The notes below the pieces were generated by a model. That model ran no database searches and was not told where the DNA came from. It worked only from the letters and a program-made list of their open reading frames with translations. Made by a program: the position numbers and the translations under genes. A stretch of 46,066 nucleotides of DNA from a virus: the IMG/VR virus record IMGVR_UViG_3300049927_000065, positions 1-46,066 of that record. One strand, given 5' to 3'. This document shows positions 1,756 to 42,754 of this stretch, one piece after another (positions within the stretch are counted from its first letter, which is position 1; every line of letters starts with the position of its first letter).

Positions 1756-1901
1756 CCGAGCGGGAAGCCCTCCAGCAGGAATACTACAAAGCCCGTCGCG
1801 AGCGCATGGCGGCGAAGGAATACTACGACGCGACGGTGTGCGAGGAACAACGATTGGCGCAGCGTATCTGGAAACTTCTGCGCCCGGCCGATGATGCCTG
1901 A
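1752..1901 (+). CDS. 49-aa micro-ORF between terS and terL
   Basis: Hand-translated as MTEREALQQEYYKARRERMAAKEYYDATVCEEQRLAQRIWKLLRPADDA. It has an ATGA overlap with the terS stop and overlaps the terL start by 11 nt. GC3 is about 73%. Confidence 0.45.
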   Translation: MTEREALQQEYYKARRERMAAKEYYDATVCEEQRLAQRIWKLLRPADDA

Positions 1902-3387
1902 TCTGTCGGCCCTCGCGGGCATGAGCGACGAGGAACTCGAACAGACCCTCATCGCGCTCACGGAGCACCGTAAGTTCAACTTGCTCGATTTCATTGAGCT
2001 GTACCCCCGCCAAAAAGAGTTTATGGCGATGGGCGCCCACAAGCAGGAACGGCTGTTCTTCGCTGGCAACCAGATGGGGAAGACCTTCTGCGGCGCCGCG
2101 GAGTGCGCGTACCATCTTACCGGATTGTACCCGGACTGGTGGGAAGGCAAACGCTTCGATCATCCGGTTCGTGCATGGGCCGGCGGCGTCAGTACGACTG
2201 CATGCCGGGAACAGGGCCAACGCCTCTTGTGTGGACCCCCGGGCATCGAAACAGGTTTTGGAACCGGGCTCATTCCGCGCCATCTGTTCGCCGACAAGCC
2301 GACGCTGGCGCGCGGGGCCGTGGCGGACGCTTACGATACTATCGCCGTTTGGCACCACATCAACGGTGTCCGTGACGGAATATCGACGCTCCAGTTCAAA
2401 TCCTATGAGCAAGGCCGTGAGAAATTCCAGGGAAGCACGCTGGATTTCATCTGGTGGGATGAAGAACCAAAGATGGAGATATACGTCGAGGGTAATGCCC
2501 GGTACACGGCAACCGGAGGCATGTCGTACCTGACGTTCACCCCGTTGCATGGCATGAGCACCGTGGTGGTGCGCTTCCTGCACGAGAGGGATGACCGGCG
2601 CGATTACCTCACGATGGGATATAAGGACGCCCTTCATATGACCCCGGAGAAGCTCGCCGACGCGATGGCGAAATACCCGGCGCACGAACACGACGCCCGC
2701 ATGAACGGCGCCCCCCTTCTGGGCTCTGGGCGTATCTTCATTGACAACGAAGCGACCTTCGTATACCCCGCAAGCCAGGTGATCCCGGACCACTGGCCAA
2801 AATTGTGGGGTGTCGACTTCGGCATCGAGCATCCCTTCGCGGCGGTCCTGATCGCATGGGATCGCGACCTTGACATCATCTACGTGATGCACACCTACCG
2901 CGCCGCCGGTGCCCTCCCCTTAGTCCACAGCGAGGCGCTGAGGGCGGTCTGCCCCGAGGCTCCAGTGGCGTGGCCGCACGACGGCAACACGCGCGTGGAG
3001 AACAAGCTGGGGGAGCTGGCGCCCCTCTACAAGAAGTTCGACCTCAGGATGCTTCCGAAGCACGCGCATTACAGCACCGGGGGATTTTCGACCGAGGCGG
3101 TGATCAAGGAACTCCAGCAGCGGTTCCAGTGTTCCGGCGGCCCCGGCGGTATCCGGGTGCGTGAAGACCTTGGCGACTTCTTCGAGGAATACCGCATGTA
3201 CCACCGCAAGGAAGGGTTGATCGTCAAGGAACGGGACGACATTCTCTCGGCGCTGATGAAGGCGGTCATGATGCGTCGCCATGCGCGGATCGTCACGATG
3301 GGCTATGCACCTCGTCCGCCGCGTGTCCGTCCGTCGCGTCCCGTGGGCGGCCGGATAAATCCATGGACAGGTCGAACAGAGTATTGA
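1891..3387 (+). CDS. terL: Terminase large subunit
   Basis: 498 aa. Walker A-like FFAGNQMGKTF, a DFIWWDEE Walker B-like motif, and a C-terminal nuclease-like half. Its position after terS fits. Confidence 0.9.
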   Translation: MMPDLSALAGMSDEELEQTLIALTEHRKFNLLDFIELYPRQKEFMAMGAHKQERLFFAGNQMGKTFCGAAECAYHLTGLYPDWWEGKRFDHPVRAWAGGVSTTACREQGQRLLCGPPGIETGFGTGLIPRHLFADKPTLARGAVADAYDTIAVWHHINGVRDGISTLQFKSYEQGREKFQGSTLDFIWWDEEPKMEIYVEGNARYTATGGMSYLTFTPLHGMSTVVVRFLHERDDRRDYLTMGYKDALHMTPEKLADAMAKYPAHEHDARMNGAPLLGSGRIFIDNEATFVYPASQVIPDHWPKLWGVDFGIEHPFAAVLIAWDRDLDIIYVMHTYRAAGALPLVHSEALRAVCPEAPVAWPHDGNTRVENKLGELAPLYKKFDLRMLPKHAHYSTGGFSTEAVIKELQQRFQCSGGPGGIRVREDLGDFFEEYRMYHRKEGLIVKERDDILSALMKAVMMRRHARIVTMGYAPRPPRVRPSRPVGGRINPWTGRTEY

Positions 3388-3990: not shown

Positions 3991-4213
3991 GGAGAAGCTC
4001 AAGGCCGCGACCTTAGAAGCGATGGCGGAAGCGGAAGCCATCAGAAACGCCTCGGACAAAGTGGTTTCGTTGACCCCCTCACCGGACGGCATCGTCGCCC
4101 TGACGGCGAGCGGCCGGATGTTCCTGCGCGCCACGGACCCGAACCACTACAACGACGGCCGCACCACCCGAAAGTTCCGGTGGACCTTAGTTGAGGGACC
4201 GCTCGGCGCTTGA
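3980..4213 (+). CDS. Hypothetical protein (77 aa)
   Basis: GTG 3980 is preceded by GGGAGGA. It is in frame with the tail of ORF 3563..4213, and its stop overlaps the portal start (TTGA). Confidence 0.5.
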   Translation: MTTEEKLKAATLEAMAEAEAIRNASDKVVSLTPSPDGIVALTASGRMFLRATDPNHYNDGRTTRKFRWTLVEGPLGA

Positions 4214-5979
4214 GCTACGACATATATCAGGGCGATACGGGGGACGATGGCGAAGTAGTCGCGTATCTTATGCGGCTGTTCTCGTCCGCTCGTCTGCAAA
4301 GGTCGGGCTTCGAGCCACAGTGGGAAGAAGCTGCGTCGATGTATTGGCCAGAGTACCGGGGGAGCTTTTCCTTCGGCAATATCCGGGCGCAGGGCGCGAA
4401 ATACTCTCAATATCAGGTCGACAGCACTGGTTCGCTCATGGCGTTCCGGTTTATGGCGATCTACGATGCGCTGGTGACGCCGTTTAATAGCCTATGGTCC
4501 GAAGTTCGGGCTGTTGACCCATATCTGCGCAAGCAGAAGGGGGTAAGGGGATACTATCAGGAGATCTCAAACGTAGTCTGGGGCGAACGTTACCGCCCCG
4601 TCGCCAATTTCCAGGCGCAGAACCAGCAAAACGGTCATGCGCTGGGCGTTTTTGGCAATATGGGGATGTTTGTCGAAGCTCTCGACCCTCGGCCGGGCGT
4701 CTATGCGAAGGGTTTGTCCTACACGTCGACCAGTCCTGGCGAAATCTATCCCCTACAGAACCGGCAGGGCCGGATCGACGGATATATCCGGTCGATACAG
4801 TGGACCGCCCGCGAGGCGTTCGGCAGATGGCCGGCAATCGCGACCAATCCCGAATATCAGACGTTGAAAGCGGCACTTGAGAAGGGCGACGTTTTCACCA
4901 AGTTCAATTTTCTCGAATTCGTCATCCCTCGCACCGATTACGACCCGTACAAGATTTTCTCGACGCAATCGAAGCCGTGGTCGAGTACCTACGTGAGCGT
5001 CACGGGCAACTGCATCATGGAGCAGAATGGCTACTATTCGTTCCCGATGCCGGTGGGGCGGTACATACAAGCCCCCGGTGAATGGCTTGGTCGGGGACCG
5101 GGGCAAATCTCCCTCGCCACCGGCAAGACCATCAATGCTGTCATGGAGGCCTACCTCCGCACGAGCGTTGAGGCGGGTGATCCATCCTATTTGCTGCCGG
5201 AAGACAAGCTGTTCGATTTCCAACGGGGCGCCGGCAAGGACATCTTCGGTGGCGTGAACGACGACGGCCGCCCGATGGTCGCGGTTAAGCCGCAGGGCGA
5301 GATACAGCTCACTGAGGATACCCTTGTCAGACTGACGAAGGTTCAGGCGGGCATCTGGCTCAATGATCTGTTTCCCCTCCTGTTCGAACAGAAAGGGCCG
5401 CAACGCGGCGCCCGCGAGGTTGTCGAAATGGCAATCCAGCAAGGCATCTTCCTGTCCCCGCTCGCTCGCCAGTACACCGAGTATTGCGGTCCCCTGGTGG
5501 ACCGGGAAATCGATTTGCTGGCCCGCATGGGTAAGTTCGACCGCATCCCGGTTCCTGGGATCATAAAGGAAGCCGGGAACGAATACGAGCACCTGTTTAC
5601 CTCGCCCCTGGCCCAGGCACTCGATATGCCGGCGGTCGGCGGCTTTATGCGGACGGTCGATCTGGCCGCGCAGATTTCGCAGGCGCAGGGCGGAGATCGG
5701 TCGGTGTTCTACCATTTCGCGTTCGGCCGTGCTCTGCCCGCCATCGCCGCCAACCAGCGCGCGCCGGAAGACTGGATGAGCACCGACAAGGAAGTTGCTG
5801 CGCAGCAGAAGGCCGCCGCGCAGGAGAAGCAGCGAGACGATTACGTCAAGTCGCTGCCGGGGCTCGCGGCGCAGGAGAAGGCGCGGGCGATTACAGCCAA
5901 GGCGCAGACCGGCGGCAACATCGGTGGCACGCTGTCAGGCACACCCGAGGGCGGCATGCCCATGATGCCGGGACAATGA
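4210..5979 (+). CDS. Portal (head-to-tail connector) protein
   Basis: 589 aa, placed between the terminase and the scaffold/capsid genes in a T7-like virion module. The C-terminal tail is charged and Ala/Gln/Lys-rich. Confidence 0.8.
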   Translation: MSYDIYQGDTGDDGEVVAYLMRLFSSARLQRSGFEPQWEEAASMYWPEYRGSFSFGNIRAQGAKYSQYQVDSTGSLMAFRFMAIYDALVTPFNSLWSEVRAVDPYLRKQKGVRGYYQEISNVVWGERYRPVANFQAQNQQNGHALGVFGNMGMFVEALDPRPGVYAKGLSYTSTSPGEIYPLQNRQGRIDGYIRSIQWTAREAFGRWPAIATNPEYQTLKAALEKGDVFTKFNFLEFVIPRTDYDPYKIFSTQSKPWSSTYVSVTGNCIMEQNGYYSFPMPVGRYIQAPGEWLGRGPGQISLATGKTINAVMEAYLRTSVEAGDPSYLLPEDKLFDFQRGAGKDIFGGVNDDGRPMVAVKPQGEIQLTEDTLVRLTKVQAGIWLNDLFPLLFEQKGPQRGAREVVEMAIQQGIFLSPLARQYTEYCGPLVDREIDLLARMGKFDRIPVPGIIKEAGNEYEHLFTSPLAQALDMPAVGGFMRTVDLAAQISQAQGGDRSVFYHFAFGRALPAIAANQRAPEDWMSTDKEVAAQQKAAAQEKQRDDYVKSLPGLAAQEKARAITAKAQTGGNIGGTLSGTPEGGMPMMPGQ

Positions 5980-32497: not shown

Positions 32498-32679
32498 CAA
32501 CAATCGTCCTTTGTTCCTGGCAGCACGCCGTCGCCGGTAATCAGTTCATCGAGGGGTAGGGGTAGGGTTCGGTGGGTCGGGCCTCTGTGCCTTCTCCTCC
32601 ACGGCGTGCGCTGCCCACGTTTATAGTCGAGCCATTCCTCCTGATCCGCGAGGCGATCAAGCTGTAGAAATCGGGCCAT
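32497..32679 (-). CDS. Hypothetical protein (60 aa)
   Basis: GGAGG lies 9 nt upstream. The stop overlaps the next start. GC3 is only about 62%. Confidence 0.4.
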   Translation of the reverse strand: MARFLQLDRLADQEEWLDYKRGQRTPWRRRHRGPTHRTLPLPLDELITGDGVLPGTKDDC

Positions 32680-33457
32680 AGCCGACTGCCTCCATGTAGA
32701 TGGTCACGAAACTGGCCGCGACTTGCGGGACGATGGCGTTGCCAATACCACGAAGTTGAGCCAAGCGGGAGGGAAACCCATTAACCATAAGGGGTATGCC
32801 GGATTTAACCGAAGGAACTCTATAGCGGTGCCCGTTGGAGTGAAGGACTGTTCGGTACTCATCCCATATTGATGTCGCGCAATCGCCCATGAATTTGGTC
32901 CTCGGCCACCCTTCACGTGACTGGGGGATCTTCGGCGATCGTCCGTCTTCGGTGTCGCGACCCCGTGCCACCCAATATAGCCGTTGTCGGATATGGGGCG
33001 CGCCCTCGCCCGCAGCGCACAGATCGGCGGCCCCGACGCCATATCCCAATGCTTCCAAGTCAGCACGTACTCCGGAGAGCCATCCACGTCCATCCTTGCT
33101 CGCAACCTGTTCTCCAAAGACGACTGGAGGGCGGCACTTCGCGATGAGGCGGTGGAACTCGGGCCATAAATGGCGGGCGTCGGCGGTTCCGAGACGCTTG
33201 CCGGCGGCGCTGAAAGGCTGACAGGGGCAAGAGCCGGTCCACACGGGTCCACAGAAGCCCGCCTGCGCGAGCGCGTAGGGCCAACCTCCGATGCCCGCGA
33301 AAAAGTGACAGTCAGCGTACCCCCGAAGATCGGAGCCGTGTACGTCGGCGATGCTCCGCTCGTCAACATCGCCCGCCGGCAAATGTCCTTGAGTGATAAG
33401 CGCGCGAAGCCATGCGGCGGCATGCTTATCCCACTCATTATAGTATGCGCGGGCCAT
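32657..33457 (-). CDS. DNA (cytosine-5)-methyltransferase
   Basis: Motif I FFAGIGG, motif IV SCPCQPFS, motif VI FGEQV, motif VIII QRLYW, motif X GNAIVP. GGGAGGCGGATC-ATG at 33457. Confidence 0.85.
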   Translation of the reverse strand: MARAYYNEWDKHAAAWLRALITQGHLPAGDVDERSIADVHGSDLRGYADCHFFAGIGGWPYALAQAGFCGPVWTGSCPCQPFSAAGKRLGTADARHLWPEFHRLIAKCRPPVVFGEQVASKDGRGWLSGVRADLEALGYGVGAADLCAAGEGAPHIRQRLYWVARGRDTEDGRSPKIPQSREGWPRTKFMGDCATSIWDEYRTVLHSNGHRYRVPSVKSGIPLMVNGFPSRLAQLRGIGNAIVPQVAASFVTIYMEAVGYGPISTA

Positions 33458-33794
33458 GATCCGCCTCCCGCAGCAGCTCGAAAAAGTCGTCGGCACCGAG
33501 CACGACCAACCAGTCGCCTTTACACGACGTCTTCCGCTTGTCGTCGTTGCAGCGATGAACTACAACCGGCGTGCAGCCCACGGCGGCGTCACGGCGCGCC
33601 TGGTCGACTGCGGCGTAGAGCGCCAGCCGTTCGGTGCGCTTCACCTCGAAATGGACACCGGGGATGCTGTGGATCACATCCGGGCTCTCACCGCCACCGG
33701 AGAATTGCTGACCCCGGCGCGCCTCATAGCCCCGGTCCTTCAGCTCCTTGGCCCACTCCAATTCGCCGCGGGCGCCCTTATCCCTGCTGTTCAC
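33438..33794 (-). CDS. PD-(D/E)xK nuclease, Holliday-junction-resolvase (Hjc)-like
   Basis: KGARGELEWAKELKDRGYEARR...SPDVI...VHFEVKRTE matches the Hjc-type G.RgE...D...E.K layout. GTG start. Confidence 0.6.
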   Translation of the reverse strand: MNSRDKGARGELEWAKELKDRGYEARRGQQFSGGGESPDVIHSIPGVHFEVKRTERLALYAAVDQARRDAAVGCTPVVVHRCNDDKRKTSCKGDWLVVLGADDFFELLREADHGPRIL

Positions 33795-34065
33795 GCCATC
33801 CCCTCGGGCGGCAGGAGACCCGGCTGCCCTTTGTCACATGAGGCGTTGAGCCCGCTGAGATAGTGGTGGAACCCGTACATGAAGCTGCCTCGCGGATCAA
33901 ATCCTGCGGCGTGCCAGACGGCACATGCTCGACATGATGCACCGCGCCGGCCGCGAAGATCATCACCGCGGTGAACGTCACGGCGGTGCCATGCGTCCGC
34001 ATGGCCTCATTGAAGACCACGGTAAGCCCCCGCTGCACATCCATAACGGCATCAGCTTTGTCCAT
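33778..34065 (-). CDS. Hypothetical protein (95 aa)
   Basis: AGGAGATCGCTAA-ATG immediately after the polymerase stop. One hydrophobic stretch. Confidence 0.45.
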   Translation of the reverse strand: MDKADAVMDVQRGLTVVFNEAMRTHGTAVTFTAVMIFAAGAVHHVEHVPSGTPQDLIREAASCTGSTTISAGSTPHVTKGSRVSCRPRGWREQQG

Positions 34066-34076
34066 TTAGCGATCTC

Positions 34077-35696
34077 CTATTTCCTGTAACGCGCGTCAGC
34101 CCAGCTCTCGACGGCAATTGGCACCTTGATCCGCCGGCTGTAGGCGGTCTGTTCCGCCATGATCTGCTCATACGCCTTCTTGTCGCTGCGAGCAAGCGAT
34201 ATCTCACTCATGCACTCATCGTGGACCGTAAGTACGAGTGGAAATCCGTTCGCCTCCAGCCGGTGCATGGCCTCGCACAGAAATCCCCGTGCAATTTTCT
34301 GCACGACGTTCTCACAAAGTAATCCTCCGTAGGCGTAGACCGTCCGCCATTGGCCCTGCTTCATCGTCTGATAGCACCAGCACGGCCGGATGTCGGGCTT
34401 GTCCGCGGTGCTCCACGGCATTTTCTTTGCTGTCAAGCACGGATCGCGATACCACATGATCTGCCCGTCAGGGATGATACAGGCGAGCGCGTGCGGATAC
34501 CACTGGTAGGTGATGCCATACGCCTCACAACGCCCCTGCGTCTGCACGGCGCGCAGGGCGGCGTTCTCCAGAGCCCACCACAACTTCGGCACCTCGGGCG
34601 CCCACACCTCGCGATAGGCCCTTATGACACCCTGCGCGAACTCATCGGACATGTCGGGGCAATACCGATCCTTGAACTTCTGCCAGCCCATCTGAAAACC
34701 GCAGCCTAGAACAGTGTTCTTGCCGATCTGGCGCTGCGGCGCATGCTGCACCTTGTTGAACGACCCCTTGGGTGCCTGATAGATATCCTCGGCCATATCG
34801 AGATAGACGTCCTTGCCGGATGCCAGCAACGCGGTCTTGTCATGCTGACCGGCGAGCGCGAGCACGACGCGCATTTCGATCCCGGCGAAGTCTCCCGTGT
34901 TGAATTCATGCTCGTCCGCGGCAATGATCGCATGACGCAGACCGGAGGCTACCGCGGCGATCGGATCGCCGAACACCATATTGATGTAGTCGAGATTGCC
35001 CCCGAAGATCGCCGAGACAAGTGCGTCGGGGTCGTGGCCGCCCTCTATTTTCCCTCGGGGAAAATTTTGCGGCTGGAACAGCCGGCCAGTCCAGCGTCCG
35101 GGGCCTGCGCCATGGTACTGGAGGGTATACCGGACCCGTCCGTCTGCGTTGACACAGGCGAGCATGCGATGGAGCTTCTTGATGCTGGCGCTCCCGAGCA
35201 CTGCCCTAATCTCAAGCGCCCTCCGCACCCTCGGGGGCACCGTTTGTTGGTCAAGAGCAGAGGGCACCATTTCCAACTCGCCGGCTTCTTCATCGTCATC
35301 CTCATCGATCCCGAGCGCCTTGAGGTTTTCCTTACTCAAGCTGTCGATCGGGAAACCGTTGACCCCGCACCAAGCGGTGAGCTTCTGAACCTGTGTCATC
35401 TTGAGGCCACCTGTCAGCTCCGCGAACTCAGCGGCGAGCGGCTGACTGGCCTTGGCTACCACATCGAGACAGGCATGCACGTAGGGTAGGTCGATGCGTA
35501 GACCGCGCTGGTTGATGCGTTGGTCTAGCTCCCACACCCGGCGCTCATAGGGCGAGAGCGGGCCCACAGCGGCCCCTACGGCTATCTCCGTGCGACAATC
35601 CTGTACGCAGTATTCCCCGACGCGGCGCAGCGTCTCAGGTGTCCTATCATAGGTGCCCTTGACGAACCGCCTCCGCCATTCAGCCTGCGTTGTCAT
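34077..35696 (-). CDS. DNA polymerase I family A, C-terminal fragment (ExoIII motif plus polymerase domain)
   Basis: ExoIII-like YCVQD, motif A GDFAGIEMRV, motif B RQIGKNTVLGCGFQMG, motif C LTVHDE. The start overlaps the MTase stop (ATGA). Confidence 0.9.
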   Translation of the reverse strand: MTTQAEWRRRFVKGTYDRTPETLRRVGEYCVQDCRTEIAVGAAVGPLSPYERRVWELDQRINQRGLRIDLPYVHACLDVVAKASQPLAAEFAELTGGLKMTQVQKLTAWCGVNGFPIDSLSKENLKALGIDEDDDEEAGELEMVPSALDQQTVPPRVRRALEIRAVLGSASIKKLHRMLACVNADGRVRYTLQYHGAGPGRWTGRLFQPQNFPRGKIEGGHDPDALVSAIFGGNLDYINMVFGDPIAAVASGLRHAIIAADEHEFNTGDFAGIEMRVVLALAGQHDKTALLASGKDVYLDMAEDIYQAPKGSFNKVQHAPQRQIGKNTVLGCGFQMGWQKFKDRYCPDMSDEFAQGVIRAYREVWAPEVPKLWWALENAALRAVQTQGRCEAYGITYQWYPHALACIIPDGQIMWYRDPCLTAKKMPWSTADKPDIRPCWCYQTMKQGQWRTVYAYGGLLCENVVQKIARGFLCEAMHRLEANGFPLVLTVHDECMSEISLARSDKKAYEQIMAEQTAYSRRIKVPIAVESWADARYRK

Positions 35697-36208
35697 ATCT
35701 TACATTCTGCCATGCAAATTGTATCATTACGGCCGCCTCCGTGGGCAACGAGTAAAATTTCCTTGATCGCGTATCCGCGGCCCTTTCCCATGCCCGCGCT
35801 ATTCCAACCGAAAGATAAGACAATCCCGCCAGGGACGATCAGCGCGTCGAGGGCATCGCGAACTCGCCGGTATAGAGCACCATTCTGCGTGCCCGCCATT
35901 CCAACCTCGCGCCCAACACTCTTATAAACTTCGCTGATCTGACGGGGGCTATATGGCGGATCGAACAATCCTAAATCGCATAGAAATCCCCGCCTTGCTA
36001 TCTCAAGCAGAAAATCTTCGGCGTCCATATGATACCGCGCGGCAGTGTTCGGGGCTAGATCGTTCGTGAAACTCGCCCACGTCTTATTCCGCGCAAATGG
36101 ATCGATACTCCTAGTCGCTTCGCTCATGTACCGCCGCACAAAATCTCCGATTGGTCGGACGGAGAAGGTTTCTGCATTCGGCATCGCGAACACGCGAGAA
36201 AATATCAT
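35693..36208 (-). CDS. DNA amino-methyltransferase (N6-A or N4-C; DPPY motif)
   Basis: SIDPFARN (motif I-like) followed by LFDPPY (motif IV). ATG 36208 has ATGGAGAAACTGAT upstream and an ATGA overlap with the exo-fragment stop. An alternative start exists at 36226. Confidence 0.75.
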   Translation of the reverse strand: MIFSRVFAMPNAETFSVRPIGDFVRRYMSEATRSIDPFARNKTWASFTNDLAPNTAARYHMDAEDFLLEIARRGFLCDLGLFDPPYSPRQISEVYKSVGREVGMAGTQNGALYRRVRDALDALIVPGGIVLSFGWNSAGMGKGRGYAIKEILLVAHGGGRNDTICMAECKI

Positions 36209-36663
36209 ATCAGTTTCTCCATCCATGACACCATCGTCATCGGTTTTGACAACGATAAGGTGAGCTTGCGGCCGATCTTGTCCTTCTGCTCATCCACGCC
36301 CAGCACCTGGGCGGCCATGTCGAGCGCCATCGGGGCGCCCGTGTAGGCGCAGCGGGCCATAGTACAATCCCACCGCTCGATCGGGACTGGCGGCATACCG
36401 AGCTGGCCGACCATGATAAAGTGCCAGATGGCTTGCTCGAACGCGGCGTTGTGCGCCTCAAAGATCACGTCGGGGTTCTCCGCGAGCCCGCGCAGCATGA
36501 TCAGGAGGTGGTCATTCTGCCCCGGTATCCAGACCCATACGTGTTCCCCGCGGACCCAGGCAAGACAGAGGATTTCCGTGGTGGGGTCTTCGGCATAGCG
36601 CCAGGCACCCGCCTCGGACAGGTCGCAGTTCGATGCTGTCTCGAAGTCAAGGCAAATTTTCAT
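36205..36663 (-). CDS. DNA polymerase I family A, N-terminal fragment (3'-5' exonuclease ExoI/ExoII)
   Basis: ExoI LDFET and ExoII EAHNAAFE. It ends just after the conserved KDKIGRKLTLSLSKP block. Confidence 0.85.
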   Translation of the reverse strand: MKICLDFETASNCDLSEAGAWRYAEDPTTEILCLAWVRGEHVWVWIPGQNDHLLIMLRGLAENPDVIFEAHNAAFEQAIWHFIMVGQLGMPPVPIERWDCTMARCAYTGAPMALDMAAQVLGVDEQKDKIGRKLTLSLSKPMTMVSWMEKLI

Positions 36664-36668
36664 TTGCT

Positions 36669-36848
36669 TCAGGCGCGCTTGACTGGACGGCCAACACCCC
36701 GTACCGCGCGGATCGCGCGTAAGGCGGCACCCGTGTACTTCTGTGCGCGCGGACGTTTCGGCGATTGGTTGGCCTTGCGCTCGAACAAATGCAGGCCAAC
36801 GTCCATCAGCGCGACCTTGAGCGGTACGCCTTGCTTGTTGAAGATCAT
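36669..36848 (-). CDS. Small basic protein (59 aa)
   Basis: AAGGGAGAACACAA-ATG at 36848. Lys/Arg-rich C-terminus. Confidence 0.5.
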   Translation of the reverse strand: MIFNKQGVPLKVALMDVGLHLFERKANQSPKRPRAQKYTGAALRAIRAVRGVGRPVKRA

Positions 36849-36866
36849 TTGTGTTCTCCCTTTTTC

Positions 36867-36980
36867 CCTTACGCCTGCCGGGGGCTTACCGGACTTGCAG
36901 GACCGCCACCCATGCGGGCAGCGGGTATCCACCGGAGGGCGACCTCTGCTATGTTGGACCCTCGACCCGGCAGGCGTAAG
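36867..36980 (-). repeat. 15-bp perfect inverted repeat closing an 84-nt insert (structured RNA or MITE-like element)
   Basis: CTTACGCCTGCCGGG (36869-36883) pairs with CCCGGCAGGCGTAAG (36966-36980). The flanking T/A runs extend the pairing. It sits in the 190-nt gap between the SSB gene and the next operon. Confidence 0.7.
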
Positions 36981-37017
36981 AAAAAAGTTGGCCGGCGCTT
37001 CCCCAGCCTGGGGCGCT
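36981..37017 (-). terminator. Possible intrinsic terminator after the SSB gene
   Basis: Minus strand: GCG-CCCCA-GGC-TGGGG-(AAG)-CGC, then CGGCCAAC and TTTTTT. The stem is imperfect and the T-run is distal. Confidence 0.3.
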
Positions 37018-37037
37018 ATTTCAGCCCGTGTCTCAGG

Positions 37038-37709
37038 TCAGACGAGGCCGTGTACCGGGGCACCAGCAGTCGGGCTGATGTTTGAAACATGACCCGTGTA
37101 CCGCGCAAAGCTGTCGGGACTTCCGTACCGTTCCTCGGGGTCCATGCCCCCAGCAATCCGGTCGCCCGTGTTCAGCGACAGCACTTCGTTGAGGTAGGCC
37201 GAAACGCCCCCGCCCATGCCCTCATAGCCCTGAATATGAAAGGTGCCGATCGCAAGCACGCCGCTGTAAAAGAATTTGGCGGCAAGCTGGCGCGGTGCGT
37301 CCGTCGTATCGTAGTTGACGAACTTCCCGTTGAGCAACACCACAAGGCGCGGCGGGATCAACAGCGATCCGTCGAGCTTCTTGACGTTGCACTTCGCCTT
37401 GAACAGGATTTTCCCGCGCGCCCATTCGCGATCCTTTTTCAACGCGACCGCCTGATTGGCGATCACGTCGCCATCCAGCACGGGGTAGGGATTGGCCGCG
37501 TGTACCTCGGGGCAGTTCTCCCGCAGCATTTGACGAAGCGGTTCCCAATCCGGGTGAGCGGCGGTGAGAAGCCAAGTCGCCTCGTAGGCGGCCTTGAACG
37601 GCGCTCGCGGGTCTTTCGGGTTAGGGCGTTCGGGGCGGGGTTCTACGACCGCCGACCACACCATCGGCGCGGGGACGGACATCTGAAAATTCTGTTTGTC
37701 ATTGGCCAT
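37038..37709 (-). CDS. ssDNA-binding protein, T7 gp2.5-like (DUF2815)
   Basis: VLDGD, FYSGVLAIGTF and GGGVSAYLNEVLSLNTGDRIAGG match the DUF2815 pattern. AAAGGAAACTCATCA-ATG. Sits next to DUF2800 and PolA as in known modules. Confidence 0.75.
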   Translation of the reverse strand: MANDKQNFQMSVPAPMVWSAVVEPRPERPNPKDPRAPFKAAYEATWLLTAAHPDWEPLRQMLRENCPEVHAANPYPVLDGDVIANQAVALKKDREWARGKILFKAKCNVKKLDGSLLIPPRLVVLLNGKFVNYDTTDAPRQLAAKFFYSGVLAIGTFHIQGYEGMGGGVSAYLNEVLSLNTGDRIAGGMDPEERYGSPDSFARYTGHVSNISPTAGAPVHGLV

Positions 37710-37798
37710 TGATGAGTTTCCTTTGGGTCTAAAGTGGGACGCATTGTCCGGGGCGCTCCAGCCCGGTCTATCGCAGTACACACATGTTGTCTCACGTG

Positions 37799-39148
37799 TC
37801 AGATGGGCGCGTCAACATATTTCTCCGGCGGGCCGTATTTCTCCTCGTTGGTTTTCGGGATGACTGGCTTGCGCCGGTCGTCAAGCTGCGCCACGGCGTA
37901 GCCGTTGTCGACCGTGTAACACCATTCGGCCGTGGCGAGCTTGCCCTCCGGCAAGGTCTCCACCCCGGCGGGGGAAAGCATCTTAGGAGGCGGATACAGT
38001 TGCTCCCGAGTGTAGCGTGTAAGCAACGCAGCCTCGGCACCGTCCTTCCACTCCCGGCTCGATTTCGCCATAACGATCTTGCTCCCCGGAACGTCTATCC
38101 CAGCGAGGATGCGGCGCCGATAAACTTCTTTCTCGATCGCCGCGAGACGCATCTTGACGAAGGGAACCAGCGCATAGTCTCGGCCGAGAATGTCGGCGTC
38201 CATGAGACCAAGTTCGGGAACCACTTCCCCGGAGAACGCACGGAACGCCTGGCTCATGGCCGGACAAACCAGCTTGGCGGGGCAAAACCGGCACCACTCG
38301 CCCATCTGAAGATGCATGTCCCGCGCCTCGATCGCCATCCCCGGCAGCAGCACCTCGTAGAGCCACTGCTTGAGGGCACCGACTGTCGTTACCCATGTCC
38401 GCACGGGATCAGCCCAAACGATGCGAGGCTGCACGATGCTCAACTCAACCTCGTCTTCGTCGCCGTAATAACTCGGGTCTTCCATAACCGCCATGCATGC
38501 ATAGTATTTGAGCTGATCATTCTCCTCGGCCTCGACAAAGATGCCCTCCCCGTGCTTGTAGTCGACCACTCGTAGCCGGATGCGGCCCGCAACAGGATCG
38601 AGCACGGCGTCGAGCGTCGAGAACATGTGCGGGCTAAGTTCGGGCAGATGCAGCTTCACCTCAACCCGACGCCGGCCAGACAGCGACCGGACGTAATCGA
38701 GGTAGACCTGCACAGACATGGCGGCGATCGGATTGAGCTGCGGATACTCATGTACTAGTTCCCATGCGTCCACGTTCGCGTCTAGCGCGCGAGCGCCCAG
38801 CTCATGAGCCTGCACACCATCACGCCGCCAGTCGGGATCGTCCCCCTCAACGCCGTCAGGGACCATCTTCTTGACAAGATCGATCAGCGCGGTCGAGCCT
38901 GTGCAGTTGAGGAAGCGGTGCGCGGCGCTGCCGCCCATCTTACTGTGCGCCGGCAGCTCAGGAGTCGCATTCTCCGTCTGCGGCGCAGACACGGGAGAAG
39001 CAACGATCTCCGGCAATCCAGCAATAGGTGCCGCTTCGGTCATCATGTAGTTCTCCTTCGGCACATTCTCCGGGCGCTGGCACTTCCGACACACCCGCTC
39101 GCCCTTCGGCTCGCCCTTCGGGTAGCTGCACTTCAAGCAGTTGCTCAT
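37799..39148 (-). CDS. PD-(D/E)xK nuclease, DUF2800/Cas4-like, with N-terminal zinc ribbon
   Basis: GGSAAHRFLNCTGS, VVDYKHGEGIFVEAEENDQLKYYA and CRFCPAKLVCPA match DUF2800. N-terminal CLKC...CRKC. GGAGGAAGAA-ATG at 39148. GC3 is 90% in this frame over 39061-39120. Confidence 0.8.
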   Translation of the reverse strand: MSNCLKCSYPKGEPKGERVCRKCQRPENVPKENYMMTEAAPIAGLPEIVASPVSAPQTENATPELPAHSKMGGSAAHRFLNCTGSTALIDLVKKMVPDGVEGDDPDWRRDGVQAHELGARALDANVDAWELVHEYPQLNPIAAMSVQVYLDYVRSLSGRRRVEVKLHLPELSPHMFSTLDAVLDPVAGRIRLRVVDYKHGEGIFVEAEENDQLKYYACMAVMEDPSYYGDEDEVELSIVQPRIVWADPVRTWVTTVGALKQWLYEVLLPGMAIEARDMHLQMGEWCRFCPAKLVCPAMSQAFRAFSGEVVPELGLMDADILGRDYALVPFVKMRLAAIEKEVYRRRILAGIDVPGSKIVMAKSSREWKDGAEAALLTRYTREQLYPPPKMLSPAGVETLPEGKLATAEWCYTVDNGYAVAQLDDRRKPVIPKTNEEKYGPPEKYVDAPI

Positions 39149-40022
39149 TTCTTCCTCCATTTATGTCGCCCGGTTCCATGGCCGCGATGGCGGCAGCGTC
39201 GACGATCGCAGGCGGCGCGGCAGCCGCCAGTTTGGCGAGGATCTGAGCGTCAGTCATGCTCTTCTGAGCCTGTGCTTCCGCGGCAAACCTGATGACGCAC
39301 CGCGATGCCCGCTGTTTCTTCGGGAAATCCTCGGTTGCGAAAAAGGGCCGGTACTCGTCGGTATCGAGCCACGGATATCGCTCGACGATCTTCGCGTAGC
39401 TCGCTGTTTCCCGGATCGCCTGATAGAACGTTTCCGCTTCGGCGGTGATCTGTGCCCGCCGTTCGCGGTGCCACATGACGAGCGCATACACGGCCTCGAA
39501 ATCGTCGTCAGCTTCCCGGACATAGCACTCGTAATAGAGCGCCCGATCTTCCTCTTTCTGCCCGGCATAAAGGTAGGCGGTGCCCGGCATCATGATCGGC
39601 GATTTGAATTCGACGCCGAAGGTTTGATCGTAGCATTTAGTCCGGCGATCGTACACCCGGAGATTGGCGCCCCCGATCGGAGCGGCATAGTGATACTTGC
39701 TCATGATCGCCATATCGGCCTGTATCTCGGGAGCGCCCCACTCGGCACGCAAGCGCTTGTCGGCGGCGGCGACCAGTATGGCGACGTTGGTATCATATTC
39801 GGCCTTCATCATGGCCTCGCCGCGCTTCCGGTTGATTTGCTGTAACTCGATCCGCAGCCGGCGGTCCAGCTTGATACCCCGGGGAATGCTCATTTCTTCC
39901 TCCATTACCTCGGCCATCGTGCGATGGCCCGTGAATGCCCAACTTTCTCCGGGGTGGACGACCCTGGCAACCGCCGTGCCGGCAACCGGGATTGTCGCAG
40001 CCGGCGCAGTAGCCGGGGCCAT
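38958..40022 (-). CDS. Hypothetical replication-module protein (311-354 aa)
   Basis: Long ORF. The best start is ATG 39893 (GGAGGAAGAA-ATG), with ATG 40022 also possible. The last 191 nt overlap the nuclease gene out of frame. Confidence 0.6.
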   Translation of the reverse strand: MAPATAPAATIPVAGTAVARVVHPGESWAFTGHRTMAEVMEEEMSIPRGIKLDRRLRIELQQINRKRGEAMMKAEYDTNVAILVAAADKRLRAEWGAPEIQADMAIMSKYHYAAPIGGANLRVYDRRTKCYDQTFGVEFKSPIMMPGTAYLYAGQKEEDRALYYECYVREADDDFEAVYALVMWHRERRAQITAEAETFYQAIRETASYAKIVERYPWLDTDEYRPFFATEDFPKKQRASRCVIRFAAEAQAQKSMTDAQILAKLAAAAPPAIVDAAAIAAMEPGDINGGRNEQLLEVQLPEGRAEGRAGVSEVPAPGECAEGELHDDRSGTYCWIAGDRCFSRVCAADGECDS

Positions 40023-40664: not shown

Positions 40665-40864
40665 GCTGGTTCTCCATCCGCTCCAGAACTCAACCACACT
40701 TCCTTTAGCGTTTCCAAATCGACGACTTCCGCCCATTCGTTGGGATACGCCATGACCCGCTGGGCAGATTCGATTGCGCTGTCGCGATCGTCAAAAGCGT
40801 CTCGAAAATCCCGCCACCCTCCGTTCATGTTGCCATTCCCAGCAAACACAAGATACCGTTTCAC
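40661..40864 (-). CDS. Hypothetical protein (67 aa)
   Basis: GGAGGATAGC-GTG at 40864, with a GTGA overlap onto the SNF2 stop. Confidence 0.5.
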   Translation of the reverse strand: MKRYLVFAGNGNMNGGWRDFRDAFDDRDSAIESAQRVMAYPNEWAEVVDLETLKEVWLSSGADGEPA

Positions 40865-42528
40865 GCTATCCTCCGATCCAAGCTGTTGTGCGTCACATGC
40901 CCCTTCCGTAGCGCGGAAGCAAGTACCTTCTCCGCGATCGACCCGGCGGCAACGCATATGTCGCCGAGCACCTTCATCTTCTGGCCGCCTCTATCGAGGC
41001 GATCAAAACATTGCTGGTTGTTCCCGTTTACCCAATCGGGTTCCCCGAGCACCGCGTGCCAGCACACGTCTTGCAACCCGTCCGTCCCCGTGCCGAGCGA
41101 CAGCACGTTCCCCATGATGACGCGGTATCGAGGGTCCGTGCGGAACCGTTGGATAAGTGCGTGCTTTACCACAGGCGTGATGCTGCCGTCAACCCTACAC
41201 ACGCCGTACTTCCCAAGGATGCTCTGATAGATCGTGCCGACGCTAATGTGCCAATAGAACAAGGTGATCTTTTCCTCGCCGCCGTCGAGCAGCAGCTTCA
41301 CATATTGGGCAACCTGGGGCGCCATCGCCTCGCCCATGATCCGGCGGGCCTCGGCGATATGACCGAACACCATGGCATTGGCGCCCTCAAGATGCTCCGG
41401 GTCGATCCCGAGCAGGCTTTCGGCCTTGAGCGCGGCCCGGACTGCTTCGGTTTCCTCAAGGCGCACCAGGTCAAACGAGGGGTATTTCAAATCCTTCATC
41501 ACCTCGCGCTTGAGGTGGCGGGTCATGAAGTTGGCGCGCAGCCGATTTTGCAACTCGGCGTGCCGGCCGCTGCGCTCGTCATTGACGATGGCCGTTGACC
41601 CGTCTTTCCGTGTAACCTCGATTTGCCGAATAGGGTTGAACCGCTCGTTGAAGCGGTCCTCGCTCAGCCAGTCGAGCGCGGCGTGGTCAAAGTGGCGACC
41701 AAGGACATACGCCTCGCGGGGACGGTTTGGCAAAGGAGTGCCCGTAAGGGCAACGATCCGTTTCGCGTTCTCTGCCAAAGCCTCATGGTAAAGAACGTCA
41801 TGTCCGCCGCCGAAAACGGCTCTTGTGCGTTTTGCGCCAATAGTCTTGAGATAGTGCGCTTCGTCCAAAATGAGAAGGTCATAGTTCGATTGCCTCAAAC
41901 CGGCGAGAATGCCGGGGTTGCGCGCCAGCTCGTAGCTCGCGACGGTCCATGCGGCTGTCGGGTGGACGCCGCGCTTGCCGGAGACGACCGCGTAGGCCAT
42001 CTGGTTCGGAGTGTAGTAGGTGCCGTTGTGGCCGTCGCCCATTGTCGACCACTCGGCGATCTTGGACAGCCATTGCAGCCGGATCGACGCCGGCACGATG
42101 ACGAGCACACGCTGCGCTTCGATCTCGTTGGCGTAGACGATCGCGGTCGGTGTCTTGCCGAGCCCCGGTTCATCCGCGTCGAGTACGCGCTCGCGCGAGA
42201 GCATGTAATCAAGGTCAGCCTTCTGGAAATCCCAAAGCTCTTTGTCGGGGGGCACCGAGAAATGGCGACCGCTCGTCGCGGCGCGGCTGGCAGCGATCTC
42301 CCGAACGATCCAACCAAGCTCAGCCTGCGCACCGGGGGTCGCGACATGAGCAAAGGTCGCCGCGGCATAGGGCTGCGGGGTGAACAGCACGGCCGTCTTG
42401 GCGGTGCTGTCCGGCAGGGAAAGCTCGAACCCATAGTCCTCCATCGCGGACTGCGCGGTCAGCTCATCCCGTTGCCGATCAAGCGACAGAATGAACAGCT
42501 TGGTTGCTGGGTTATAGTCGAGCTGCAT
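40861..42528 (-). CDS. SNF2-family helicase
   Basis: Motif I DEPGLGKT, motif II LILDEAHYLK, motif III LTGTPLPN. The C-terminal helicase lobe is present. ATG 42528 follows the upstream stop (TAGAATG). Confidence 0.85.
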   Translation of the reverse strand: MQLDYNPATKLFILSLDRQRDELTAQSAMEDYGFELSLPDSTAKTAVLFTPQPYAAATFAHVATPGAQAELGWIVREIAASRAATSGRHFSVPPDKELWDFQKADLDYMLSRERVLDADEPGLGKTPTAIVYANEIEAQRVLVIVPASIRLQWLSKIAEWSTMGDGHNGTYYTPNQMAYAVVSGKRGVHPTAAWTVASYELARNPGILAGLRQSNYDLLILDEAHYLKTIGAKRTRAVFGGGHDVLYHEALAENAKRIVALTGTPLPNRPREAYVLGRHFDHAALDWLSEDRFNERFNPIRQIEVTRKDGSTAIVNDERSGRHAELQNRLRANFMTRHLKREVMKDLKYPSFDLVRLEETEAVRAALKAESLLGIDPEHLEGANAMVFGHIAEARRIMGEAMAPQVAQYVKLLLDGGEEKITLFYWHISVGTIYQSILGKYGVCRVDGSITPVVKHALIQRFRTDPRYRVIMGNVLSLGTGTDGLQDVCWHAVLGEPDWVNGNNQQCFDRLDRGGQKMKVLGDICVAAGSIAEKVLASALRKGHVTHNSLDRRIA

Positions 42529-42529
42529 T

Positions 42530-42754
42530 CTACGTGAGGGGCGGCCCAATCGGGAGGATATACAGCCCCCCGATCGGGAGGATATACAGGTCTTGAACCG
42601 CGACGGTGCACACTGTGCCATCCTCAAGCTGGACCCACGCATAGCTCATTAGATCGGCGCAGCGCCGCAAATAACGAGCTTCGATCCGACCGCCCAAACT
42701 TTCCACGATGCAGTCGGCGGAATAGGGGCGGGGCTTTGGTTTACGTCCGGTCAT
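42530..42754 (-). CDS. Hypothetical small protein (74 aa)
   Basis: Strong AAGGAGG 8 nt upstream of ATG 42754. The C-terminus carries the duplicated LYILPIG peptide encoded by a 17-bp direct repeat. Confidence 0.55.
   Translation of the reverse strand: MTGRKPKPRPYSADCIVESLGGRIEARYLRRCADLMSYAWVQLEDGTVCTVAVQDLYILPIGGLYILPIGPPLT
42549..42588. repeat. 17-bp direct repeat ATCGGGAGGATATACAG x2
   Basis: Two exact copies 23 bp apart, immediately upstream of the SNF2 start on the minus strand. Confidence 0.85.

Follow-up and report, generated by a model that had tools for sequence, protein, structure and literature searches.

The stretch of DNA analyzed here (the window) comprises positions 1 to 46,066 of IMG/VR virus record IMGVR_UViG_3300049927_000065, 46,066 nucleotides (nt) of a phage genome, and contains a locus that appears to encode a family A DNA polymerase with a predicted 3'-5' proofreading exonuclease, split over two genes with a methyltransferase (MTase) gene lying between them. 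The three open reading frames (ORFs) are all on the minus strand and are linked by two ATGA stop/start overlaps (Table 1). Their positions and both overlaps, as given in an initial annotation made from the sequence, were confirmed, as was the distribution of the motifs, with ExoI and ExoII located on the 152-amino acid (aa) exo fragment and ExoIII together with polymerase motifs A, B and C on the 539-aa pol chain. Residues 1 to ~50 of the pol chain correspond to the C-terminal helices of the exonuclease domain, the helix bearing ExoIII included, and are followed by the thumb, palm and fingers; the break is thus not at the boundary between the exonuclease and polymerase domains.

Table 1. Positions of the split polymerase locus, its motifs and junctions, and of other genes in the window
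Feature	Position	Strand	Remarks
Exo fragment gene, 152 aa	36205..36663	-	ORF list; PHROG 17 profile positions 673-790; beta-sheet core of 3'-5' exonuclease domain with ExoI and ExoII
ExoI, LDFET	36637-36651	-	in exo ORF
ExoII, HNAAFE	36436-36453	-	in exo ORF
Exo tail, MTMVSWMEKLI*	36205..36240	-	native first half of clade-specific helix-loop-helix insert; ends at fission point
Shine-Dalgarno (SD)-like GGAGA	36216-36220	-	inside exo tail; 7 nt upstream of MTase ATG
First ATGA overlap, exo/MTase	36205-36208	-	
MTase gene (cargo), 171 aa	35693..36208	-	ORF list; PHROG 11619
MTase motif I variant, DPFARN	36086-36103	-	
MTase motif IV, DPPY	35951-35962	-	
Second ATGA overlap, MTase stop and pol start	35693-35696	-	within clade-conserved NTGACC pol start
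Pol chain gene, 539 aa	34077..35696	-	Pfam PF00476; PHROG 17 profile positions 804-1231
ExoIII, YCVQD	35598-35612	-	near N-terminus of pol ORF
Motif A, GDFAGIE	34875-34895	-	in pol ORF
Motif B, RQIGKN...	34716-34733	-	in pol ORF
Motif C, VHDE	34215-34226	-	in pol ORF
C5 cytosine DNA methylase	32657-33496	-	Pfam PF00145, E = 3e-17
Enc34-like single-stranded DNA-binding protein (SSB)	37038-37781	-	weak, sub-threshold Pfam match
DUF2800 nuclease	37799-39160	-	replication module
SNF2 helicase	40861-42642	-	replication module
Large terminase	1891-3387		
T7-type portal	4210-5979		

The two fragments are collinear with intact family A polymerases. Both match the PHROG 17 DNA polymerase profile, one after the other, and a search with the joined fragments returned more than 1,200 homologues; in the majority a single protein of 650-730 aa spans the whole query (100%), and in a minority the pol part alone is covered. 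Among the three ORFs only the 539-aa one is recognized by Pfam (DNA_pol_A, 42.5 bits against a cut-off of 34.3), with profile matches to Taq and Klenow in the regions of motifs A and C, and no NCBIfam model was found for the exo fragment. When aligned to 12 intact homologues with MAFFT, the fragments were fully collinear, with every aligned residue accounted for and none lost or duplicated, and the break fell between ExoII and ExoIII, so that ExoIII was not placed in the first fragment. The exo ORF ends in ...LSLSKPMTMVSWMEKLI and the pol ORF starts with MTTQAEWRRRFVKGTYDR, the equivalent segment of the closest intact protein (P0003, 63% identical) being ...LSLSKPMTMVAWEAKRPEDVTKAAWKRQFVKGTYDR. 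The DEDDy-type exonuclease motifs, as established for Klenow, are ExoI (DxE), ExoII (Nx2-3[F/Y][D/E]) and ExoIII (Yx3D), and all three are present. Numbered along the joined sequence, residues D6, E8, E76, Y181 and D185 show no or almost no variation in 67 homologues, the Y and D of ExoIII being invariant in the 67 sequences, and the acid of ExoII is Glu, not Asp, across the whole family.

That the break falls within the exonuclease fold, as had been proposed, is borne out both by the alignment and by a structural model generated with AlphaFold2 (AF2) from the exo and pol sequences artificially joined into a single chain (predicted local distance difference test score, pLDDT, 91.8; predicted template modeling score, pTM, 0.89). 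In the model, junction 152/153 is predicted to lie in a loop between short helices 144-148 and 156-161, and ExoIII on helix 172-196. Foldseek matched it at full length to exonuclease-bearing family A structures, with a probability of 1.00 to G20c Pol I, Klenow and DpoZ. The segment of ~24 residues in which the break sits is absent from more distant homologues, and the length of the break-bearing linker ranges from 2 to ~29 aa among 70 intact relatives. As for the last 11 codons of the exo ORF, the ribosome-binding site that had been placed there for the MTase would be the SD-like GGAGA; the codons do not derive from an insertion, but are native polymerase sequence, aligning as the homologue of ...PMTMVAWEAKRP... 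in intact relatives. The source annotation (P0001) starts the pol gene at a later ATG, which gives a product of 496 aa, whereas the clade-conserved NTGACC and the alignment to intact homologues support the start at 35696, which we favor.

The two-gene layout was found in all contigs that were fetched, i.e. those of pol-only homologues and of one stand-alone exo gene (L001, L002, L003/L004, L010, L011, L012, L013 and L099). Neighbor-joining analysis of the pol region grouped the nine split sequences into one clade nested among intact ones (bootstrap 98/100). The exo fragment, used alone as a query, retrieved stand-alone exo proteins at 62-100% identity, at least 24 of them distinct; they are 150-158 aa long, two having longer called N-termini. 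All of the more distant relatives that could be judged were intact (70/70 metagenomic and 32/32 from IMG/VR), which supports a single split clade, and a metagenome scan as well as four further viral scans gave distant relatives only, with no further split members. At the DNA level, no match was obtained in a similarity search against 50,697 cultured-phage records; the best protein matches among cultured phages, from the Xanthomonas Xp12 group and Achromobacter AMA1, are ~33% identical and are intact polymerases. Neither a search for related loci with the exo protein alone nor a scan of genome contigs returned anything. As judged from these comparisons, the break is old, inherited and monophyletic.

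What lies at the junction, on the other hand, differs between the nine loci inspected (window, L001, L002, L003, L010, L011, L012, L013 and L099). The MTase occupies the slot in the window only. The closest relative, L001 (83-86% identical), carries an unrelated gene of 131 aa at this position, while a single ORF is found in L002 (66 aa), L003 (56 aa), L010 (30 aa, hydrophobic) and L012 (62 aa), and two ORFs (73 and 82 aa) in L013. In L011 and L099 the slot is empty, and the exo and pol ORFs overlap in different frames. No similarity was found among the eight cargo ORFs of the seven filled loci, and no endonuclease domain in the cargo ORF of the window or in those of its relatives. The MTase itself is foreign by composition: its GC content and GC content at third codon positions (GC3) are 0.531 and 0.552, respectively, against 0.601 and 0.797 for exo and 0.604 and 0.744 for pol. 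In a related replication module (L016), an MTase of 71% identity is encoded two genes upstream of a 700-aa polymerase that is intact, and one of 77% identity occurs in an unrelated ERF-type phage. The low GC3, the homologues elsewhere and the variable slots together indicate that the MTase is a recent, mobile arrival at a pre-existing junction. The proposal that its insertion had split the polymerase is therefore not upheld, since the same break runs through a monophyletic clade with other ORFs or nothing in the slot, including relatives that are split and cargo-free. That the MTase is a complete, free-standing and horizontally acquired gene does stand, given its full-length homologues and its deviating GC3.

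In L013, each cargo ORF is bounded by copies of the exo tail (481-505 and 716-740; 25 nt, 88%) and of the pol 5' end (708-722 and 970-984; 15 nt, 100%), a pattern that indicates stacking of cassettes by recombination at the junction. Around the MTase of the window, a search for flanking repeats or a target-site duplication gave only GATATGA, common to the two junctions and extending 3 nt beyond ATGA, which is not significant. Two of the cargo ORFs lie in gaps that the gene caller had left empty, namely the 66-aa ORF of L002 (2535-2737), with GTGA overlaps at both ends, and the membrane-like ORF of L010 (3363-3459), which is tightly coupled to its neighbors. Also in L010, an Endonuclease_7 (PF02945) gene is located directly upstream of the exo gene (2590-2904), and represents the sole nuclease-type candidate for a mobile element seen near any junction.

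The MTase is predicted to be a class I S-adenosylmethionine (SAM)-dependent amino-methyltransferase of the (D/N)PPY type, with a Rossmann-like fold and predicted SAM binding. It matches PHROG 11619 ('DNA methyltransferase') at E = 6e-35 and is part of a very large family, with more than 6,500 homologues of 170-195 aa, for which no Pfam or NCBIfam model was found; no DNA MTase model matched either, and a PDB sequence search with the MTase gave no match. Residues 1-171 align to free-standing phage proteins of 167-195 aa at 40-49% identity, full-length homologues being present in Croceibacter phage P2559S, in jumbo phages of Erwinia, Serratia and Yersinia, and in Staphylococcus and Streptococcus phages. 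PHROG 11619 members such as those of Croceibacter P2559S, Serratia BF and the Staphylococcus and Streptococcus phages have the same size and share DPFARN and DPPY, and differ in being free-standing elsewhere in the genome. An in-frame ATG further upstream, at 36226, would give an alternative product of 177 aa; the start of the 171-aa product is supported by close homologues, which begin M-x-F-x-R-x-F-A-M-P. The copy in the window retains 48/48 invariant columns of an alignment of 55 sequences, itself included, and FDPPYS (residues 82-87), which contains a canonical motif IV and follows a strand at 77-82, is invariant in the 55 homologues. The AF2 model of the MTase (pLDDT 92) was matched by Foldseek with a probability of 1.00 and a TM-score of ~0.5-0.6 to TrmN, Trm11, RsmD/YhhF and other SAM-dependent MTases. 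The fold fits DNA and RNA substrates alike, the label 'adenine-specific DNA methylase' being the depositors' annotation only. The enzyme would modify the nucleic acid of the phage, for instance for self-protection against restriction, and an anti-restriction role is plausible. A C5 cytosine MTase gene is located ~600 bp downstream of pol in the same module, meaning that the phage carries two different MTases.

The explanation that we consider probable is an inherited fission within the exonuclease fold, an enzyme made of two chains, and a cargo slot that came later. The data show the fission with its position, age and monophyly, the purifying selection on both halves, the turnover of cargo and the deviating composition of the MTase, while the reassembly of the chains, translational coupling and the substrate and role of the MTase are inferred from them. 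The coding sequence of the family A replicative polymerase was cut in a clade-specific helix-loop-helix insert of variable length, at its tip; the insert lies between ExoII and ExoIII of the proofreading domain, and the cut gave a chain of 152 aa with the ExoI/ExoII core and one of 539 aa with the ExoIII helix and the whole polymerase. The new junction then became a permissive slot for small accessory genes, mostly with NTGA-type overlaps, and in this phage the slot has recently taken up a minimal DPPY SAM-methyltransferase, which would bring it into co-expression with the replication genes. As to how the cut arose, the pol chain starts with NTGACC at the equivalent position in 9/9 loci, using ATG in the window, L012 and L013, GTG in L002, L003 and probably L099, and TTG in L010 and L011, and in several loci the TGA within NTGA is the stop codon of the preceding ORF. 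Intact sister genes have ATGACG (L017) or GTGACG (L018) at the position of the pol start, as internal Met-Thr or Val-Thr codons. With NTGAC already in place, a small upstream indel would bring the TGA into frame and leave the NTG as a restart, and we infer that the split originated in this way, through the same kind of event as in the polymerases of S-SBP1-like cyanophages.

A rather unlikely alternative is that some earlier cargo gene, and not the present MTase, cut the polymerase by insertion, and that this cargo was later swapped or lost. Cargo is present in seven of the nine loci and placed exactly at the NTGA junctions, and the duplications at the junctions of L013 are typical of recombinational insertion. 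The empty loci could have arisen by deletion, the exo ORF of L099 ending at an out-of-frame TGA that is the one used by the cargo ORFs of L003, L010, L012 and L013. Precedent comes from T4-like phages, in which nrdA and gene 60 are split by free-standing endonuclease genes (PMC2988022). However, no cargo is common to the lineages and none is a homing endonuclease, and the two cargo-free members have simple overlapping frames. Moreover, homing elements usually land at conserved motifs, whereas the break is located in a hypervariable loop; an intein-like insert found in relatives sits, by contrast, in motif B. The presence of NTGAC in intact sisters also means that a small indel suffices to give both stop and start, as in S-SBP1 (PMC10201439). 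A split by a homing endonuclease was rejected as such, the ORF in the window being an MTase and the cargo ORFs being devoid of endonuclease domains.

Returning to the two-chain enzyme, the chains are expected to reassemble non-covalently into a normal Klenow-like polymerase, with a composite exonuclease active site to which chain 1 would contribute D6, E8 and E76 and chain 2 Y29 and D33. The initial annotation had left a choice between such reassembly and an inactive exonuclease, and the former appears most likely given that the fragments are collinear and that both halves bear the mark of purifying selection. Pairwise dN/dS values (ratio of nonsynonymous to synonymous substitution rates, Nei-Gojobori method) are 0.11-0.24 for exo and 0.12-0.26 for pol, at dS from 0.74 to >2, i.e. 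with synonymous sites saturated. D6, E8, H71, F75 and E76 are invariant across the 24 stand-alone exo genes, and ExoIII reads YCLQD in 8/8 pol chains from databases and YCVQD in the chain of the window, its Y and D being kept throughout. Family A enzymes with an inactive or truncated exonuclease do exist, e.g. Taq and CCPol (PMC10201439), and one could imagine that the exonuclease is dead here too, the 152-aa ORF being a remnant or repurposed and the 539-aa chain replicating alone without proofreading. This is very unlikely, however, because dN/dS is equal for the two halves, saturation notwithstanding, the catalytic residues are invariant, and the exo ORF is intact, adjacent and co-oriented at every locus; the exo fragment is thus not a decaying remnant.

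Still more improbable is that the halves are rejoined into one polypeptide, whether through a self-splicing intron with the MTase ORF inside it, through a split intein, or during translation by bypass or frameshifting. ORF-bearing group I introns interrupt DNA polymerase genes in several phages (PMC10580990), and the overlap of ORFs in different frames in the two cargo-free relatives could in principle allow frameshifting. However, a search of Rfam 15 over positions 33500-37500 gave no match at E <= 1 on either strand, the cargo varies in sequence, length and frame so that there is no common ribozyme, and a conserved NTG start and an in-frame stop are found at all loci. The lengths of the fragments also sum to exactly that of an intact polymerase, without space for halves of an intein, Pfam finds nothing extra, the junction reads without an X XXY YYZ slippery site, and we know of no precedent for a translational bypass of 513 nt. 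An intron was accordingly rejected for want of an Rfam match and because the intervening sequences of relatives are unrelated, and an intein or split intein because there are no extra residues at the junction. Finally, although the window is a metagenomic contig, an artefact in the form of a chimeric contig or a false indel is practically ruled out, since the split occurs at the same codon in independent assemblies from four sources (JGI, NCBI, ENA and Logan, from which the stand-alone exo proteins come), down to 62% identity and with both ORFs kept.

With regard to translation, the exo tail usually ends in ...AGGTxGGTAGG-ATGA, supplying an SD-like sequence and a coupled start for the next ORF. 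No SD-like sequence is visible upstream of the pol start in the window, and this together with the mostly NTGA-type overlaps makes it probable that the pol chain is translated by termination-reinitiation coupling with the preceding ORF. Several points weigh against the proposed fission, two-chain enzyme and cargo slot. In L001, CTG stands at the conserved start position, and a GTG further upstream could serve instead. Coupling is deduced from the overlaps and the missing SD-like sequence, and the ancestral event could have been either a small indel that shifted the frame or an insertion by some earlier cargo gene. The AF2 model is that of an artificially joined chain and is therefore silent on the affinity of the two chains. 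As for the MTase, its motif I is conserved family-wide as DPFARNK in place of the canonical glycine-rich FxGxG or GxG, it has no recognizable target-recognition domain, and the nearest solved folds, as far as its model can tell, are RNA m2G methyltransferases.

A broader interpretation, doubtful but conceivable, is that the hypervariable ExoII-ExoIII loop is naturally permissive to fission and has been cut repeatedly, the junction acting as an NTGA-coupled cassette slot. Recombination between exo-tail copies and copies of the pol 5' end may capture and stack unrelated small genes there, which would then be forced into co-translation with an essential replication enzyme. If true, this would represent a recurrent route to accessory-gene hotspots inside essential phage genes, as well as a natural DEDDy active site assembled from two polypeptides. 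More distant lineages also have stand-alone exo-like proteins, at 45-51% identity and encoded on contigs of 5.9-57 kb: P0279 (154 aa), P0329 (158 aa), P0345 (156 aa) and P0353 (163 aa). All four terminate within the LSKP...YDR linker, and they may reflect independent fissions in the corresponding loop or else sequencing frameshifts.

Polymerases split in two, and cargo lying between the halves, are already known from phages. In S-SBP1-like T7-like cyanophages, a frameshift divided a family A polymerase into exo and pol parts; with the new stop and upstream start that it created, the ORFs overlap, and reassembly into a normal fold with solvent-exposed new termini has been predicted (Czernecki et al., NAR 2023, PMC10201439). 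As in the window, the exo and pol genes are adjacent, co-oriented and collinear with intact relatives, and the cargo-free L099 and L011 share the overlapping layout of S-SBP1. In contrast, the polymerase of the window is from an unrelated subfamily, with a DUF2800/Enc34-SSB/SNF2 replication module. The break in S-SBP1 is described as lying between the exo domain and the pol domain, whereas here it is inside exo with the predicted active site spread over two chains, and the junction in our clade is a variable cargo slot.

Closest in logic are the 43A/43B genes of Aeromonas phages 25 and 44RR, into which the B-family gene 43 is split, with a seg-like endonuclease gene between them in one phage and an untranslated spacer in the second; the authors who reviewed this system suggest that the endonuclease moved into a gene that was split beforehand, and the products co-purify and are active (PMC2988022). 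The intervening content varies there as well, and cargo entering a pre-split gene is what we propose for the MTase; the differences are the polymerase family, the break site and the type of cargo, a homing endonuclease versus an MTase and small ORFs of unassigned family. The OM43 phages MEP401 and MEP402 have a family A polymerase divided over two ORFs that flank a small ORF of unknown function, ORF13 of MEP401 containing the exo domain and the N-terminal part of the pol domain, and the authors left an intron origin open (PMC10580990). The break there lies inside the pol domain, and no clade-wide turnover of cargo has been described. An uncultured cyanophage lineage has been reported only as having a split DNA polymerase (bioRxiv 10.1101/325100). 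In CCPol-MP of staphylococcal cassette chromosome (SCC) elements, the pol chain keeps only the last exo helices and binds a small partner with them (PMC10201439). The pol chain of the window shares this architecture, but MP is an unrelated beta-barrel in an enzyme that has lost its exonuclease, whereas the partner here would be the missing exo part itself, with conserved catalytic residues. A break between ExoII and ExoIII, in another subfamily and with turnover of unrelated and probably translationally coupled cargo, is not matched by these published splits.

The locus adds a further, independent case in which a family A polymerase gene, here of another subfamily, has been split, and shows in addition the aftermath of fission, in which a gene boundary inside an essential gene becomes a turnover hotspot for small accessory genes. 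If the enzyme proofreads, an active site made of two chains would amount to natural fragment complementation, and a two-chain site could be useful for engineering split polymerases and for studying exo-pol communication. No central concept is changed. For annotation, such loci are a trap, as the two halves receive separate labels from gene callers, the pol gene is given a wrong start, or the ORFs of the slot are missed altogether.

Among the relatives, P0071 (residues ~450-731) and P0280 contain an insert of ~280 aa within polymerase motif B, with the intein-like boundaries GKN/CFVAGT...VIVHN/SVLGLGF. No Pfam intein domain was recognized in these two inserts. Relatives of this type are 945-966 aa long, and others of 937-1325 aa may carry similar inserts.

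Promoter-like sites in the region of the locus are at shuffled level (2, compared with 1.5 in shuffles), and terminator-like sites number 8 against a shuffle mean of 3.1 (standard deviation 1.7), most of them lying inside coding sequence. A terminator-like GC-rich hairpin followed by a T-run is located at 36990-37008 on the minus strand, downstream of the SSB-like gene and upstream of exo, from which exo, MTase and pol may form their own transcription unit.

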